Shown here: positions 183-51,401 of the stretch, piece after piece | Layout: every line of letters begins with the position of its first letter | Numbering within the stretch: the stretch's first letter is position 1 | Source: an uncultured Methanoregulaceae archaeon | GTDB lineage: Archaea; Halobacteriota; Methanomicrobia; Methanomicrobiales; Methanospirillaceae | Direction of reading: 5' to 3' | Assembly (NCBI GenBank): GCA_963705255.1 | Contig: OY970061.1 | Span: 512,001-576,000, forward strand | DNA: 64,000 nt | Notes under the pieces: generated by a model | What the model was told of the DNA's origin: nothing | The model's input: the letters and a program-made list of their open reading frames with translations, nothing else | Databases searched by the model: none | Position numbers and translations under genes: made by a program

Positions 183-2924
183 ATGCTCGAAGAGGAATAC
201 CAGCTCGACTATTTCAAGACCCAGGGGCTGACACGGAAGATCTGCAAAAGCTGCGGTTCGGCGTTCTGGACCCGCGACAGCTCGCGCGAGATCTGCGGGG
301 ACGCCCCCTGCGAGCCCTATACCTTCATCGGCAACCCGGTCTTTGCGCCCCACACCCTCGACAGTATGCGCGAGGCATACCTCTCCTTTTTTGAGAAGCA
401 GGGGCATACCCGGGTGGAACGGTACCCCGTGGTGGCACGCTGGAGGGACGACATTTACCTCACGATCGCGTCCATCGCGGACTTCCAGCCGTTCGTGACC
501 GGCGGCATCGTCCCCCCGCCGGCCAACCCGCTGACCATCTCCCAGCCCTGCATCCGGCTCAACGACCTCGACTCGGTCGGCAGGTCCGGGAGGCACCTGA
601 CCACGTTCGAGATGATGGCGCACCACGCCTTCAACACTCCCACGGAAGAGATCTACTGGAAAGACCGGACCGTCGAACTCTGCGACCAGTTCATCGCGTC
701 CGTCGGCGGGGATATCAACCGGGTGACCTACAAGGAGCACCCGTGGATCGGCGGCGGGAACGCCGGGCCGAGCGTGGAAGTGCTGATCGGCGGGCTCGAG
801 GTGGCGACCCTCGTCTTCATGAGCCTCGGGCGGCAGAAGACCAAGGACCCGGGCTACGAGCTGAACGGCGAGATGTACTACCCGATGAAACTCAGGATCG
901 TGGACACCGGCTACGGCCTCGAGCGGTTCGTCTGGGCATCCAAAGGCTCTCCCACGATCTACGACGCCGTATTCCCCGAGATGGTCAGCAGGGTGATGAG
1001 CTCGGCCGGGCTCAGCCACATGCTCGACAACAAGGACTATACCAAGATCCTTGCCCTCAACGCGAAGTTCGCCGGGCTCATGGACATCTCCGGCACCAAC
1101 CTCTTCAACCTGCGCAAGAAAGTAGCGGCTGCAATCGAAGTCTCCCCGGAAAAACTCGACAAGATGATCACCCCCATCGAGAAGGTGTACGCCGTCGTCG
1201 ACCACACCCGCTGCCTTGCCTATATGCTCGGGGACTGCATCGTGCCCTCGAACGTCAGGGAAGGCTACCTCGCCCGGCTGGTCATCCGCCGGACCCTGCG
1301 CATGATGGCCGAGCTCAAGATTGAAGAGCCCCTTGCCGATCTCATCGAGCAGCAGACCAGGATCATCGGCACCCGGAAGTTCGAGCAGGACCTCGGCGTA
1401 GTCCGCGAGATCGTCGACCGGGAGACAGAGAAGTACGCGTCCACCCTCGAGCGCGGCACCAGGATCGTCCAGAAAGTCGCAAAGACCTACAAGGCAAAGA
1501 GCCAGCGGGTCCCCTTAAGCGAGATCATCACGCTCTACGACTCCCACGGGATCCAGCCGGAGATGATCAAGGATATCGCCGCCAAGGAGGGGGCCGTGGT
1601 CGACCTCCCGGACAACTTCTACTCCATGGTCGCGGACATGCACTCCGGGTCGAAGAAGGAAGCCGAAGAGGACCGGACCGGGAAGTATGCCGAGCGGGTA
1701 CAGGGCCTCCCGCCGACCAGGAAACTCTATTATGAGGAGCCTTCGGAGATCGAGTTCGAGGCCGTCGTGCTCGACTTTTTCGACGGCTATGCGGTGCTCG
1801 ACCAGACCCTCTTCTACCCGGAAGGAGGGGGCCAGCCGGCAGATACCGGGACGCTCGTTTCCGCGGAGAGCATGGTCCGGGCCGACGGGGTCGTCAAGGT
1901 CGGCGAGGTCATCCTCCACCACGTGGGCGGGGGCGTCCTCCAGCGCGGCGACCGGGTGAAGGGGATGGTGGACGAGGAACGGCGCTGGTCGCTGATGCGG
2001 CACCACACGGCTACCCACATCCTCCTCCATGCTGCAAAGGAAGTGCTCGGCGCCCATATCCACCAGGCCGGGGCCCAGAAAGGGAGCGAGTCCTCCCGCG
2101 TGGACCTCCGCCACTTCAAGCACATCACGGCCGACGAACTCCGCCGGATCGAGATCGCGGCAAACCGGATGATCATGGCAGGCCAGCCGGTGGAGATCAC
2201 GGTCGAGGACCGGACGAAAGCCGAACAGAAATACGGGTTCTCCCTCTACCAGGGAGGAGTGCCCCCGGGCAGGACCATCCGTATCGTGAAAGTTGCCGGG
2301 GACGTAGAGGCGTGCGCAGGCACCCACTGCCGGAACACCGGTGAGGTCGGCGTCATCAAGATCATCCGGGTCGAGCACATCCAGGACGGTATCGAACGCA
2401 TCGAGTTTGCGGCCGGCGTTGCCGCCATCTATTATATGCAGCACCTCGAGCAGATCGTTGCATTGGCCGCAGACACCCTCTCCGTGCAGTTCGAGAACCT
2501 GCCGCCAACGGTATCTAGGTTCTTCTCGGAATGGAAAGACCAGAGGAAGGAGATCGAGCGGATGAGCGCAAAACTGGTCGAGCTGGAGATGCAGTCACTG
2601 GTTGCCGAACCGGTCGGCGGCGTATCGGTCGTGGTCAGACGGATCGACCTCCCGCAGAAAGAGCTCTCGGCCATTGCCACCTCCGTTGCGGAAAAAGGCG
2701 GCGTGGCACTCCTCGCCGGTGCCGGGGAGACGGTCCGGGTGGTCCTCGCATCGGGAGACCCCCGGGTGAATGCCGGGGAGATCATCAGCCAGGTCTGCAG
2801 CCTGCTCGGGGGAAAAGGCGGGGGGAAGGCAGCGATGGCCCAGGGTGGCGGGCCGGATGCGAACCAGCTGGACCTCGCACTGAAAGTCGGACGCGAACGC
2901 ATCCTTGCGGCACTGCATGGCTGA
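183..2924 (+). CDS. alaS: Alanine--tRNA ligase (archaeal type)
   Basis: N-terminal CxxC, TIASIADFQP, VDTGYGLER, editing HHTATH and CAGTH, C-terminal GGKGGG...AQGGG. ATG at 183 preferred over GTG at 174. Confidence 0.98.
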   Translation: MLEEEYQLDYFKTQGLTRKICKSCGSAFWTRDSSREICGDAPCEPYTFIGNPVFAPHTLDSMREAYLSFFEKQGHTRVERYPVVARWRDDIYLTIASIADFQPFVTGGIVPPPANPLTISQPCIRLNDLDSVGRSGRHLTTFEMMAHHAFNTPTEEIYWKDRTVELCDQFIASVGGDINRVTYKEHPWIGGGNAGPSVEVLIGGLEVATLVFMSLGRQKTKDPGYELNGEMYYPMKLRIVDTGYGLERFVWASKGSPTIYDAVFPEMVSRVMSSAGLSHMLDNKDYTKILALNAKFAGLMDISGTNLFNLRKKVAAAIEVSPEKLDKMITPIEKVYAVVDHTRCLAYMLGDCIVPSNVREGYLARLVIRRTLRMMAELKIEEPLADLIEQQTRIIGTRKFEQDLGVVREIVDRETEKYASTLERGTRIVQKVAKTYKAKSQRVPLSEIITLYDSHGIQPEMIKDIAAKEGAVVDLPDNFYSMVADMHSGSKKEAEEDRTGKYAERVQGLPPTRKLYYEEPSEIEFEAVVLDFFDGYAVLDQTLFYPEGGGQPADTGTLVSAESMVRADGVVKVGEVILHHVGGGVLQRGDRVKGMVDEERRWSLMRHHTATHILLHAAKEVLGAHIHQAGAQKGSESSRVDLRHFKHITADELRRIEIAANRMIMAGQPVEITVEDRTKAEQKYGFSLYQGGVPPGRTIRIVKVAGDVEACAGTHCRNTGEVGVIKIIRVEHIQDGIERIEFAAGVAAIYYMQHLEQIVALAADTLSVQFENLPPTVSRFFSEWKDQRKEIERMSAKLVELEMQSLVAEPVGGVSVVVRRIDLPQKELSAIATSVAEKGGVALLAGAGETVRVVLASGDPRVNAGEIISQVCSLLGGKGGGKAAMAQGGGPDANQLDLALKVGRERILAALHG

Positions 2925-3516
2925 CCCTGTCCTCGTCCTCGAACCCGGCGACGAACGGGCTCAGAAGATCGCAAAAGCGATGTCCAGCCAGACCGCCGGG
3001 GAGATCCTCCGGCTGCTCGGGGAGGGCCAGAAGAGCCTGACCGACCTTGCCGAACGGCTGGCCCTCCCGATGAACACGGTGAAATACCATGTCGGGAACC
3101 TGCTCGATGCCGGGCTGATCTCGGTCGCCGATACCAGGTACAGCGTAAAAGGGCGGGAAGTGAAGATCTATACCCTCACCAACCGGCTCCTCATTGTCGC
3201 CCCCCGTCAGTCCGATGTCCGCTCGCTGCTGCTGAAATATGCGTCACTGTTCGGTATTGTCGCCGTTGCCTCTCTCACGGTCGCTGTCATCCTGCCCCTG
3301 CTTGAAGAAAACGTGAACGCCCCCGTCATTGCGCCCGCAGCTGCCGGAGTGATGCGGGAGACACCTGCGGTGGCATTGAAAGCGGGCTGGGGGGGGACTG
3401 CCGCCCCGGCTGCCACTGCTGCGATCGATCCGGCACTCGCCTTCTTCCTTGGCGGGGTTCTTGTTATCCTTGTACTGCTCTGCTACGAAGCGTGGCTCTG
3501 GAAGAGACGGGGATGA
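2917..3516 (+). CDS. ArsR-family HTH regulator with two C-terminal transmembrane segments
   Basis: IAKAMSSQTAGEILRLL...YHVGNLLDAGLI...SVKGREVKIY winged HTH followed by two hydrophobic stretches; start overlaps the alaS stop. Confidence 0.85.
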   Translation: MADPVLVLEPGDERAQKIAKAMSSQTAGEILRLLGEGQKSLTDLAERLALPMNTVKYHVGNLLDAGLISVADTRYSVKGREVKIYTLTNRLLIVAPRQSDVRSLLLKYASLFGIVAVASLTVAVILPLLEENVNAPVIAPAAAGVMRETPAVALKAGWGGTAAPAATAAIDPALAFFLGGVLVILVLLCYEAWLWKRRG

Positions 3517-3637
3517 ATGGCAAAGCCTTTCATGACATACCTGAAGGCAGGGCGGGATATATTTTTTAAGCGGGATAAAAAATCCTGTCAGGTACATTTT
3601 TATAAATCTCCCGGGAAATCGTTGGAACACTATTCTA

Positions 3638-4080
3638 ACGCTCTTGGGGGCGACGAACCTCACGGAACGTGAGGTGAGGCGGGAGAAGAACGCGAAGCGT
3701 TCTTCGACTATCTCGAATCCGCAGTCGAAGAATTCTGACGAATTCGGCGAAGCCTGCGGGCTTCTTCTGTCTCAAGTCTGATGACTCTCGACATTCTCCA
3801 ATTAATCCTCGCTGTGTGACGAAGGAACACGAGAAGAGAGCCATAAGGCTCTCTTCGCTGATGCGACGATTAATTCCCCGCCGCTGGGGCATCCCCCATA
3901 ATGTGATAATCACTCAGAAGGCAAGCGAGAAATTCCCAAAGGAAGGGAGGAATAATTGACGGGTCGAAGATTTACTTCGTAAATCTTCTCCTCTTCGAGG
4001 TCTGAAGACCTCTCGGAGATTCAAGGGGACGCGCCCCTTGGGCTGCCTCCCCCTCTGGGGGAGAGAGGGGGTCACCCTCA
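3638..4080 (+). repeat. Palindromic host repeat B carrying five nested two-hairpin mini-elements
   Basis: Matches the reverse complement of the uninterrupted copy 51198-51382 once inserts 3651-3709, 3723-3875 (containing 3746-3793 and 3815-3860) and ~3963-4020 are removed. Confidence 0.9.
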
Positions 4081-4148
4081 CATACATTCCAGAATCTTTT
4101 TCCAGTCTGGTCCTTACCCGGAATCCCGCTTTAGAAAATACATTTGCG

Positions 4149-4976
4149 TTATTTTCCGCGTCTCGCCATGACAGCCAGAAGCAGGCCTGCTACGGTAACA
4201 GCACCGATGACCGGTAAAGGAGAGAGCGGGGACTTGGTCTCCGTAGGCCACGGGGTCGGGACCGTAATGGTGGTCATGGTTTTCTGCACCGGTGCAACGG
4301 TCGTCGGCACAGCGGTTATCACCGCCGTTGCAGGTGCTGCGACCGTGAAGGTAGCCCTCCCGATATATCCGTTTGCATCCGAGAAATCCACCTCATATTC
4401 TCCTGCCGACGTGACGATCACGTTCTGGCTGAACGTTCCCGCACCGGTCCGCATGTCACTGGTGGTCCCGATCCACTGTGGCCCGAACATCCGCCCGTTC
4501 GGGCCGGTGACTTCAATCTCAACGCCTGCAGAGCCTTCTTTTGCTACAGAGCCCGCGATCGTAAGTGCGTTATCAAGGTTCTGGGTCAGGGCCGATGTCA
4601 CCGTGAGATCCCCGGAGCGGTCGATCACCTGGACAAACTGGAGGGTCACCGAATCGGACCGGGCGGTCAATGACCCGGGGACCTGTGCTTCGACCTTGTA
4701 ATTTCCCCCGGGCAGGCCGGTAGTATCGAAAATCGCAGTCTGGTTTTTCTGGTCACCCTGGCTGGTTACGGTCTGGCTACTGACTTCGGTTGCGGTATAC
4801 TGCGTCTGGTACAGGACAACAGTAAATGCGGTTCCAGCCGGGAAGTCCCCGCCAAGAGTACACTGGAGCGGAACACCGGTCTGGACCTTGGGGGGGCAGG
4901 TGAGGTAGACCCCGTAGGCCGATACTGTTCCCACGATGCACATCAGGAACAGTGCGATGAATATGAACCGTTTCAT
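4149..4976 (-). CDS. Secreted/cell-surface protein with Thr/Pro linker and C-terminal TM plus basic tail
   Basis: Signal peptide MKRFIFIALFLMCIVGTVSA, beta-rich body, ends KSPLSPLPVIGAVTVAGLLLAVMARRGK. Confidence 0.8.
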   Translation of the reverse strand: MKRFIFIALFLMCIVGTVSAYGVYLTCPPKVQTGVPLQCTLGGDFPAGTAFTVVLYQTQYTATEVSSQTVTSQGDQKNQTAIFDTTGLPGGNYKVEAQVPGSLTARSDSVTLQFVQVIDRSGDLTVTSALTQNLDNALTIAGSVAKEGSAGVEIEVTGPNGRMFGPQWIGTTSDMRTGAGTFSQNVIVTSAGEYEVDFSDANGYIGRATFTVAAPATAVITAVPTTVAPVQKTMTTITVPTPWPTETKSPLSPLPVIGAVTVAGLLLAVMARRGK

Positions 4977-35718: not shown

Positions 35719-36076
35719 ATGAGGGCGACCCCCTCTCTCAGGTCGCAGAACTCTGACGAGTTCTTCTCCAGTCTGCTCTTCCCTTCGGGAACAGCAGTCT
35801 CCCTAGAGGGGGGAGGCATCCCAAAGGGAGCGCCCCCTTGACCCCCTCCTATTATTCATCCAGTTCTCTGAAAATTTCTCACTAACCTTCTGAGTGATTA
35901 TCGCGCTGTGGGGGATGCCACAGCGGCGGGGAATTAACCGTCGCATCAGCGAGGGTTAATTGGAGAAGAATTCATCAGAATTCTTCGACTGCGAAGGCGA
36001 CAGCATTCGAAGAACCCTCCGGGTTCTTCTCAAGCCTGTTCTTCCCTTCGGGAACAGCAGTCTCCCCCAAGAGCGT
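35719..36076 (-). repeat. Host repeat B with three mini-elements (35740-35800, 35932-35990, 36005-36063)
   Basis: Collinear with 51198-51382 after the inserts are removed. Confidence 0.9.
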
Positions 36077-36134
36077 CTTTTTTTATCTCTTCAAAGCAGG
36101 AAAAACAAAAAAAACCGAAAACTAAAAAACCAAT

Positions 36135-40076: not shown

Positions 40077-40371
40077 ACGCTCTGAGGGCTACGGCATCTG
40101 ATCCCTCCCCGCTGCTTAGGCATCCCCCATAGAGAGATAGTCCCTTAAAAGGTTAGTGAAAATCCTGCCGAAAATGGGGTCGCAGATTTACTTTGTAAAT
40201 CTTCTCCTCTTCGAGGTCTGAAGACCTCTCAGAGATTCAAGGGGATGCTCCCCCTGCGTTGCCCCCCTTCTGGGGGCAGACTGATGTTCCCGAAGGGAAA
40301 TCGCGGAAGGTTGTCTCTCTTTTACCATTGCGATGAACGCCGCCGCCCCCGACGGGGCGCCCCCGCGGCGG
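40077..40371 (+). repeat. Host repeat B (mini-element 40179-40236, remnant 40278-40299) followed by the left arm of repeat A (40330-40371)
   Basis: Similarity to 3638-4080 and 57107-57148. Confidence 0.85.
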
Positions 40372-40472
40372 TTTTTATACGGTTATATTTGAAAAAACGA
40401 ATGGTAAAATTCACTTTCATTCTGCGTAATACAGATTATTAAATACAGGGATTAAGAATAGTCCATTGAGAT

Positions 40473-41096
40473 ATGGATTTGTCGATAAAAGACCGTAAAA
40501 AATTATGGAGCGCGGCTTCCGGAATATGTTCCTATCATCATAATGGCGAAAATTGTGAAAAAAAACTATTTGCAGCGAATGGAATGGTTGATACCAACCT
40601 AGGTGAAGAGTGCCATATTGTCGGTGAAAGACCCGGCGCTGCAAGATATCTAGAAAATTTTGCTGAAAAAGAGACTTCCGACAATGCAATTGTCCTATGC
40701 AAAATACATCATAAAATTGTTGATGATAATCCCGATGAATATACGGTGGACGTCCTTAAAAGAATGAAAGAGGAGCATGAACGCACAATCTCCGAAAGAT
40801 TAGCAAATCGAGAAATTGTACCATTTATATTAAATGATTGTCAGATCTTGCTTAAAGTTGATAAAGCGGAAGAAGATGTAATAGGATTAGATGTTCAGAG
40901 ACCCGCAATACTTTCGAATGTTGGTGTAAGGGTCCAAGTAGGTGAAGCCAAGACCGCAATTGGAATGAAGGTTTCAGGAGGACTTACTGTAACAATGGGT
41001 TATTGTGAAAATTGTAAAAGATATTTTAGTAAATCCTTTTCAGGTCAACAAGATACGCAAATTAAAGAATGCCCTTCCTGTCATCGACCTGTATAA
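40473..41096 (+). CDS. AT-rich HNH endonuclease with C-terminal zinc ribbon
   Basis: LWSAASGICS..C, GEECHIV, NAIVLCKIHHKIVD, MKEEHE; C-terminal CENC...CPSC. Confidence 0.88.
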   Translation: MDLSIKDRKKLWSAASGICSYHHNGENCEKKLFAANGMVDTNLGEECHIVGERPGAARYLENFAEKETSDNAIVLCKIHHKIVDDNPDEYTVDVLKRMKEEHERTISERLANREIVPFILNDCQILLKVDKAEEDVIGLDVQRPAILSNVGVRVQVGEAKTAIGMKVSGGLTVTMGYCENCKRYFSKSFSGQQDTQIKECPSCHRPV

Positions 41097-41140
41097 AACC
41101 TTCCTGCCCCGCCGTGCCTCGGAGAGGCCCTGAGGCGGGG
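41095..41140 (+). repeat. Right arm of repeat A, overlapping the HNH stop codon
   Basis: 46 nt identical to 21275-21320. Confidence 0.9.
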
Positions 41141-41301
41141 GCCTCCCCTATCAGAATTTTCATAATTTTTTGTGGAATTATCCATCTTTTTCGTTTCAAC
41201 CGAACATGGTGAAGAAACTGGATCGTCCCAGCCGGTACAAGTGGACCTCCACGCTCAATCCGAAACCGCTATATCGGGCGATCATTCATAGAGATGTGAC
41301 T

Positions 41302-51197: not shown

Positions 51198-51401
51198 ATG
51201 AGGGTGACCCCCTCTCTCCCCCAGAGGGGGAGGCAGCCCAAGGGGCGCATCCCCTTGACCCCCATCTATTATTCCTCCCGTTTCTGAGAATTTCTCGCTA
51301 ACCTTCTGAGTGACTATCCTATCATGGGGGATGCCCAAGCGGCGGGGGCGGAGGCAACGATTGCCGTAGCCCCCAAGAGCGTGAGAGGCCCTGAGGCGGG
51401 G
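51198..51401 (-). repeat. Uninterrupted 185-bp host repeat B (51198-51382) fused to a partial right arm of repeat A
   Basis: Chain of hairpins; serves as the empty-site reference for the other copies. Confidence 0.9.

Follow-up and report, generated by a model that had tools for sequence, protein, structure and literature searches.

Hairpin doublets nested within the core of a MITE in a Methanoregula genome

The spacer between two convergent genes of a Methanoregula genome holds repeats inserted into repeats that themselves lie in a repeat, and the question raised by this locus is what the layers are and how they came to be stacked. The window, i.e., the whole stretch of DNA that was analysed, is 64,000 nucleotides long and corresponds to positions 512,001-576,000 of the source genome (designated G000; G000:C1:512001-576000), which is a single contig of 2,600,650 bp with 54.6% GC. 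The stack occupies window positions 3638-4080 (443 bp) in a spacer of 632 bp between ORF 2905-3516 (+) and ORF 4149-4976 (-). The upstream ORF 2905-3516 codes for an HTH protein with relatives in Methanoregula MAGs; the closest of them, with 94% amino-acid identity, is on locus L001 of genome G001, a relative at about 95% ANI (90-98% identity across the 274 kb of its aligned contig C4). A preliminary description of the locus, made from the letters alone, had read a host of about 185 bp between convergent genes, expanded by five modules in both orientations. The convergent setting, the host core (basal e.g. at window 51199-51383), and the five modules, three forward and two reverse, are all borne out. 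The limits of 3638-4080 are right for the core, but the element itself extends further, to TIR-bearing but degenerate ends near 3604 and 4140. Its parts are as follows.

3604..3637, + strand: host MITE left end, where a degenerate TIR lies at about 3606-3620 (by-eye comparison with intact copies).
3638..3650, + strand: left anchor of the host (..GCTCTTGGGGG); the left variable site is framed by the G5/C5 stem, of which this anchor is the 5' arm.
3651..3709, - strand: two-hairpin doublet filling the host left site; one hairpin is GA-footed (GAGAAG..CTTCGA) and the other has a GAA loop.
3723..3875, + strand: level-1 doublet, with hairpin H1a at 3725-3745 + 3794-3796 and hairpin H2a at 3800-3814 + 3861-3875.
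3746..3793, + strand: insert 1, a D1-type doublet of 48 bp (variable H1 and conserved 26-nt H2).
3815..3860, - strand: insert 2, a reverse unit in the H2a loop, with TCGCTG at 3809-3814 and 3855-3860.
3876..3963, + strand: host backbone of the long 'type b' (the B-C distance of 122 equals type b, 66-69, plus a 57-bp unit).
3964..4020, + strand: D2-type doublet at the host site GGG^TCAAGGGG, a unit seen in 6/22 scorable host copies and with both backbone types.
4021..4080, + strand: host 3' core, with a CAAGGGG..CCCCTTG hairpin and a C5..G5 terminal hairpin.
4081..4140, + strand: host MITE right end (inferred boundary), where a degenerate TIR lies at about 4123-4137.

An inverted repeat (I1) pairs 3562-3576 with 4123-4137. 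The stretch at window 3562-3600, AAAAAATCCTGTCAGG, is similar to the inner part of the host right end in reversed orientation, and may be a relic of an earlier opposite copy such as that present in G001.

All five modules are doublets of 46-59 bp, in each of which a first hairpin, footed by GAAG/CTTC (TCGAAG..CTTCTCC), precedes a second one; the doublet types D1 to D5 are labels coined here and set by the second hairpin. When both inserts are removed, the level-1 doublet 3723-3875 becomes a 59-mer that agrees at 56 of 59 positions with the reverse complement of 35932-35990, and one of the differences is compensatory, in a pair of the second stem. The doublet is uninterrupted also at G000 1417431-1417537 and 1902823-1902930. 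Insert 1 interrupts the 3' arm of H1a at GAATTC^TTCTCC and has left no duplication there; its borders are exact to the base, with four uninterrupted paralogous sites and microhomology of 0. Insert 2 lies in the loop of the second hairpin, where the six nucleotides TCGCTG stand at both borders, and four empty sites were found for it; it recurs at the identical place at G000 1162752-1162791 and 853054-853093, and also in G001:C13 and in genome G061. The doublet 3651-3709 has near-identical copies at G000 1206718-1206772, 254292-254346, and 1902823-1902930. It differs from the variant at 36005-36063 that occupies the same place beside GCTCTTGGGGG; the two share one two-hairpin plan, and their second hairpins are unrelated. 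The splitting of the level-1 doublet at both points and the two variants at one host site, all drawn in the preliminary description, are borne out.

The stack is not a chance arrangement, since searching the genome with 3600-4120 by short-word BLAST returned 108 HSPs, with blocks each repeated 3 to 27 times, and since 242 GAAG..CTTC hairpins are present in G000 compared with 0-91 for 11 control feet. Collapse or chimeric joining of repeats during assembly might be suspected in a region that consists entirely of repeats and whose 443 bp lie complete in no single public contig. However, contigs of run X1, which is possibly the source sample, tile the stack at 3416-3680, 3651-3823 (0 differences), 3794-4079, and 4053-4260, and a contig of run X3 covers 3664-3833, so that each nested junction is bridged by contigs of two runs with 0-1 differences. 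Near-identical composites are also present in two other genomes, and an assembly artefact is considered highly improbable. Joints skipping 3746-3793 in four runs may belong to paralogues and are not assignable to the stack locus.

The outermost layer is a MITE with full copies of about 250-280 bp, and the stack is the core of one such TIR-bearing element. Its core was located via a central anchor in 32 copies in the 2.6-Mb genome, with anchor A present in 22 of the 32. The TIR consensus GGCTCTGTAGAAATC occurs 35+36 times in G000 at no more than two mismatches and forms 17 inward pairs spanning 157-576 bp; no pairs longer than 576 bp were found in G000. Presence and absence in unique DNA are clean for a stretch of 281 bp in G000 only (e1) and for another of 276 bp in G001 only (e3), and in these two cases a clear target duplication was not apparent. 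The DDE_Tnp_1 gene is represented in G000 by two fragments only. Genome G022 carries, in at least two copies (L135 1064-2069 and L137 ~1057-2059), an IS about 1 kb long whose DDE_Tnp_1 ORF lies between ends that match the host TIR; in L135 the target is duplicated over 8 bp, AAACAATC. Judging by its ends, this IS is likely the autonomous partner of the host MITE family, and its intact form is absent from G000. It is the TIRs, the presence and absence in unique DNA, and the matching DDE-type IS in G022 that together identify the host as a MITE.

Host copies differ from each other in what fills their variable sites. The left site (A-B) has its basal 24 nt in 11 of 22 scorable copies and other states in the remaining 11/22, the 227 nt of the stack being the largest. 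A 57-bp D2 is present at site B-C in 6 of 22 scorable copies, and a D3 of about 53 bp at site C-D in 6/32. The loop of the terminal hairpin (D-E) is empty in 16/32 copies, holds D4 in 7/32 and D4 with a nested D1 in 6/32, and is larger in 3/32. In the stack, both 3'-core sites are empty and basal (C-D = 4, D-E = 9). Backbone type (a or b) and presence of D2 occur in all four combinations, with 10, 6, 3, and 3 of the 22 scorable copies, and among the 22 copies of D4, 20 are located on the 5' side of a C-run within a host.

Several further observations concern the host family and its neighbours. Two 'mini-hosts' (G000 968078 and 2353921) have one D4 unit directly between both host ends, and look like the product expected of a deletion between D4 copies at the left and right host sites. 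The host copy at window 35773-36078 carries D4 at both of these sites, and the TIR pairs of 157-181 bp fit the mini-hosts in size. An ORF of 207 aa at window 40473-41096 (+) is flanked by the halves of a second MITE family, 'B' (40330-40372 and 41098-41150; anchors CCGCCGTGCCTC / GGAGAGGCC), and upstream of this ORF, at window 40100-40300, there is a partial copy of host A with a D2 unit. A stretch of 1,945 bp at G000 504943-506887 is the sole long repeated stretch in the 14-mer repeat map.

The doublets are discrete units with defined ends. Canonical flanks are present on 144 of the 242 footed hairpins, and these 144 have 92 distinct sequences, so their stems vary yet stay paired. No strand bias of the 144 was seen along the chromosome, the cumulative GC skew of which peaks near 80 kb and is lowest near 2.23 Mb. 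Repeated DNA, defined as 14-mers seen at least three times (a 12-mer mask covered 73% of the genome and was too lenient), is found in at least one flank window of 117/144 canonical hairpins, compared with 26% of random non-coding positions; non-coding DNA was delimited here by crude gene calls (longest ORFs of at least 100 aa). Both flanks are repeated in 64/144 (5% of random non-coding positions), one flank in 53/144 (21%), and neither in 27/144 (74%); this strong association is descriptive only, as copies are not independent and composites propagate as units. For the latter reason, the enrichment over other C5 sites that the preliminary description proposed to look for would also be of low statistical power. 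C-run or TTCTTCTCC sites outside repeats are mostly within genes.

Stems that remain paired despite sequence change (92 distinct sequences in 144, and the compensatory pair in the level-1 doublet) could also be those of a structured RNA family or of a terminator between convergent genes, in which the apparent insertions would be selected helix extensions. The position of the stack between convergent genes suits such a role, and so does its folding: in comparison with shuffled sequences, the single-stranded DNA fold has z = -7.6, and outer stems are intact around inserts, the H2a outer stem still enclosing insert 2 in the predicted MFE structure. The same z of -7.6 was nevertheless obtained on each strand, so both strands fold equally well, and Rfam gave no match at E<=1 in 3500-4200, the sole match in the window at gathering score being a tRNA. 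An RNA role is made improbable also by the TIR-bearing copies that appear and vanish in unique DNA, by units placed in unrelated contexts and in tandem arrays, and by the spacers orthologous to window 3517-4148 (L001 4628-5003 in G001, and L002 4600-5260), which hold the MITE family in the opposite orientation and with different modules. In the alignment of G000 with G001, similarity is lost about 12 nt past one stop codon and resumes within the last codons of ORF 4149-4976; the spacer at the stack locus has been replaced in full. Inserts of the BHB-intron kind were considered separately and rejected, as by eye the junction sequence cannot form the 4-bp central helix of that motif.

What is chiefly new is how precise the nesting is: it takes place at one phosphodiester and in a fixed polarity. 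Footed hairpins whose 3' arm stops short, with a new doublet starting directly after, were scanned for in the genome. In 15 of the 16 interrupted hairpins, the 3' arm is broken exactly 3 nt short of its end (NTC^TTCTCC), and the sixteenth looks like a chance match. The 15 breaks at -3 fall on 11 distinct target hairpins, and the mirror-image configuration at -3 has 0 occurrences. The 26-nt H2 of D1 is exact in 11 copies in G000 and within two mismatches in 16, and all D1 copies inspected (12 listed, 3 checked, and insert 1) lie within another unit. An all-against-all comparison of 294 repeat regions gave 4-9 empty sites for each D1 junction, with microhomology of 0, and recovered both inserts of the stack, the second as 3815-3854/3860; insert 2 and many other events have 4-11 nt of junction microhomology. 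The 5' flank NTC holds for D1-type events, and across the unit types the flank varies (TTC, GGG, GCA, CTC). Triple nests of doublets were found at G000 2430528-2430660, at G000 1694143-1694330 in unique DNA, in G022 (L114), and in G061 (L122).

The nesting is not confined to the source genome. Of 108 genomes of the genus, 16 carry D1, the reversed control pattern having 0 matches, and the exact 26-mer is common to several species. Among 20 loci fetched from six other species, 11 have the same nesting by eye, five of them confirmed by script; the other nine comprise four of a variant that differs in its 3' flank, two tandem arrays, and three unclear loci. These counts rest on by-eye reading, as a relaxed script double-counts and misses ambiguous cases. 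D1-type units also form perfect head-to-tail arrays: one at L115 161-334 (G022:C14) has a period of 55 and 3.2 copies at 100%, and another at L140 ~95-295 (G001:C8:113990-114195) has a period of 73 and 3 copies. In both arrays, the junctions coincide with the unit borders and with the insertion borders, and such arrays may have been left by intermediates of a rolling-circle or multimer kind.

A two-hairpin unit of 45-49 bp without the GA foot (AGAGGGA..TCCCTCT followed by a second hairpin) was also observed at G000 867106-867151, 794473-794521, 1694178-1694223, and 2055627-2055671. It recurs exactly at the D1 3' junction, before TTCTCC, which indicates that the insertion point is re-used.

The preliminary description regarded the repeat hairpins as safe landing sites. 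Landing in the hairpins of resident repeats is supported, but 'safe' is not, since what the data contain is target specificity (15/16): the precision and polarity of D1, together with a site of its own for each unit type, argue for targeting rather than tolerance. The same observations bear on a different origin of the nests, namely recombination only, in which gene conversion or template switching at stalled hairpins would act among paralogous hairpins with no dedicated transposition. Shared GAAG/CTTC feet and TCTTCTCC linkers would then have allowed a few ancient insertions to be copied into similar hairpins, and the 4-11 nt of microhomology at many junctions speak for this origin. The D1 junctions, which have no microhomology and 4-9 empty sites each, are harder to account for in this way, and so is a single phosphodiester used in 11 different target hairpins with a single polarity; the foot is palindromic, so recombination should yield both polarities, and only one is seen. 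Perfect head-to-tail arrays whose unit borders are the insertion borders, and an exact 26-mer common to several species, also speak against it.

The doublets, units with defined borders that keep to the rule of site and polarity, turn over within about 5% divergence. The host copy at window 35739-36078 differs from its G001 ortholog by three whole modules at exact borders, with D4 in G000 only and D3 and D2 in G001 only. Near G000 606300, G001 has an extra doublet at ATC^TTCTCC in a hairpin that is intact in G000, and a 121-bp insertion (e4) at CTTC^TTCTCC in G000 is absent from G001. These differences between orthologs are not polarisable and could be gene conversion from paralogues.

Intermediate states of the stack, which the preliminary description had proposed to look for, were found among paralogues in G000 and in G001, and the full composite in G061. 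Both left-site doublets without any inserts are present at G000 1902823-1902930, and insert 2 only at G000 1162701-1162874. The cassette in G001:C13 is about 97% identical over 3640-3745 and 3794-3880 and has insert 2 and D2; insert 1 is absent from it, leaving a seamless GAATTC|TTCTCC. The full composite with both inserts is present in G061, a third species. From these states, insert 1 is the latest addition. The earlier expectation that insertion order can be read from the nesting thus applies to the sequence of host, doublet, and inserts; it fails for the two inserts relative to each other, for which the order of 2 before 1 comes from the intermediates. Nesting alone falls short of the full order because whole cassettes move between host copies. 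The G001:C13 copy is orthologous by its flanks to G000 254030-254376, the cassette of which differs; its own cassette resembles a non-orthologous G000 copy more than that ortholog, and its backbone type differs from that of the stack. These mismatches indicate that cassettes are exchanged between host copies, and the stack therefore need not have arisen in place.

Such exchange between non-orthologous hosts makes recombination a contributor, and it speaks for recombination only, together with the four combinations of backbone and module, the independent assortment of the two hairpins (at the D2 site, one H2 is found with three different H1), the mini-hosts with their resemblance to a deletion between two D4 copies, and a transposase that was not found. 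Weighed against the D1 junctions, recombination as the sole source of the nests is judged rather unlikely.

We favour, with some confidence, the explanation of the stack as layered selfish non-coding DNA that arose by transposition-like integration of doublets into the hairpins of a MITE. Layer 0 is the MITE of about 250-280 bp, which has four fixed sites in its GC-rich internal hairpins. These are filled by a superfamily of doublets of 46-60 bp with the plan TCGAAG-stem-loop-stem-CTTCTCC and then a type-specific second hairpin, integrating without target duplication, in one polarity, and at type-specific points. D1 would enter the 3' arm of the first hairpin of another doublet, exactly 3 nt from its end, and the other doublet types would enter loops or stem junctions of the MITE hairpins; repeated rounds of integration would then lead to the nested form. 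The order at the stack would be host, the two left-site doublets, insert 2, and insert 1, with a part of these steps perhaps completed elsewhere and brought in by cassette exchange. The movement itself would be a strand-specific, hairpin-recognising cut-and-join in the style of ssDNA transposition, performed by a putative enzyme. It is read from sequence comparison, in which neither a de novo event nor a circle or excision product was seen; the lack of strand bias along the chromosome, the junction microhomology of insert 2 and many other events, and the exchange of cassettes also count against it.

Two sources of such an enzyme were looked at, and no candidate for the mobilising enzyme of the doublets was found among Y1 and TnpB-like loci. 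The Y1 domain PF01797 has 0 matches in G000 and is present in 5 of 108 genomes of the genus, none of them among the 16 holders of D1. The three TnpB-like loci of G000 have no similarity to any repeat region, and TnpB loci were for this reason rejected as a source of doublets. Integron-like recombination at the hairpin foot was likewise rejected, as it would keep both hairpins intact and the target hairpin here is truncated. As a tentative and speculative extension, an undescribed Methanoregula system may be proposed, in which a putative enzyme of neither the Y1/RAYT nor the DDE nor the TnpB kind would cut a GA-footed hairpin and join a 50-bp unit to it. One strand would be recognised and cut 3 nt inside the 3' arm. 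The perfect head-to-tail arrays hint that the unit would perhaps derive from an intermediate that is a circle or arises by rolling-circle replication, and which target is chosen would depend on the second hairpin. With units joined into GA-footed hairpins, the elements would parasitise each other's hairpins and so build nested stacks.

Known systems of small repeats resemble the doublets in part. Elements derived from IS200/IS605 (PATE-type) have subterminal hairpins at both ends and no TSD, and their polar insertion is next to a short fixed sequence. The doublets are like them in having hairpins at both ends, polar insertion, and, for D1, no TSD; they are unlike them in that TnpA (Y1) is missing, the 5' flank varies by unit type, and the units are only about 50 bp long. 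Pneumococcal BOX elements are built in a modular way from short hairpin-forming boxes in a fixed A-Bn-C order. This modular build is shared by the doublets and the fixed order is not, and we know of no nesting rule of the doublet kind for BOX. MITEs can derive from DDE insertion sequences, and nested MITEs are known. The host layer agrees with DDE-derived MITEs in its TIRs, its size below 600 bp, the lack of an ORF, its polymorphism, and the autonomous IS in a relative. In contrast, the nested doublets have neither TIRs nor duplication and follow a rule of hairpin position rather than a staggered cut. Prokaryotic MITEs in general are covered by a review (PMC3184786).

Hairpins as targets have been described for REP sequences, which are reported to be highly selective targets of ISPpu9/10, ISPa11, ISPsy8, and IS1397 (Tobes and Pareja 2006, PMC1525189). 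Both cases have repeat hairpins as selective landing sites of other mobile DNA; the invaders of REPs are full IS with their own transposase, whereas the doublets are non-coding units of 46-60 bp that target themselves and are nested to three deep. The REP tag is GTAG, unlike the doublet foot GAAG/CTTC. To our knowledge, RAYT/Y1 is the only enzyme family that moves REP-like hairpins, and small repeats of archaea have been little studied. REP, BIME, and REPIN elements of proteobacteria are moved by RAYT (Y1 HUH) transposases and (PMC3333891, PMC3116915) are like the doublets in being abundant short intergenic hairpins with paired stems and sequence drift, in forming mosaics in both orientations, and in having strand-polar units without target duplication. 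The doublets differ from them by their archaeal host, their foot, and insertion into each other's stems; a doublet is made of two different tandem hairpins in one polarity and not of two inverted REPs, and unlike in the REPIN-RAYT system, a Y1 gene was found in 0/16 D1-holding genomes.

A search of the literature on Methanoregula combined with repeat, MITE, or hairpin gave nothing relevant; one paper names Methanoregula only for its IS content (PMC13343696). New here are the verification of the three-level stack, the -3 polarity rule, its recurrence across species, the intermediates, the exchange of cassettes, and the IS partner of the host.

From one close relative to another, entire spacers are replaced by stacks of this kind, which will mislead both assembly and scans for RNA structure. 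Together with their intermediates in relatives, they are a readable record of insertion order and cassette exchange. HUH enzymes, IS110, and integron integrases are examples of enzymes that were turned into genome-engineering tools. A unit of about 50 bp that is joined with single-bond precision and fixed polarity, in genomes without Y1, points to a candidate hairpin-specific DNA-joining activity.
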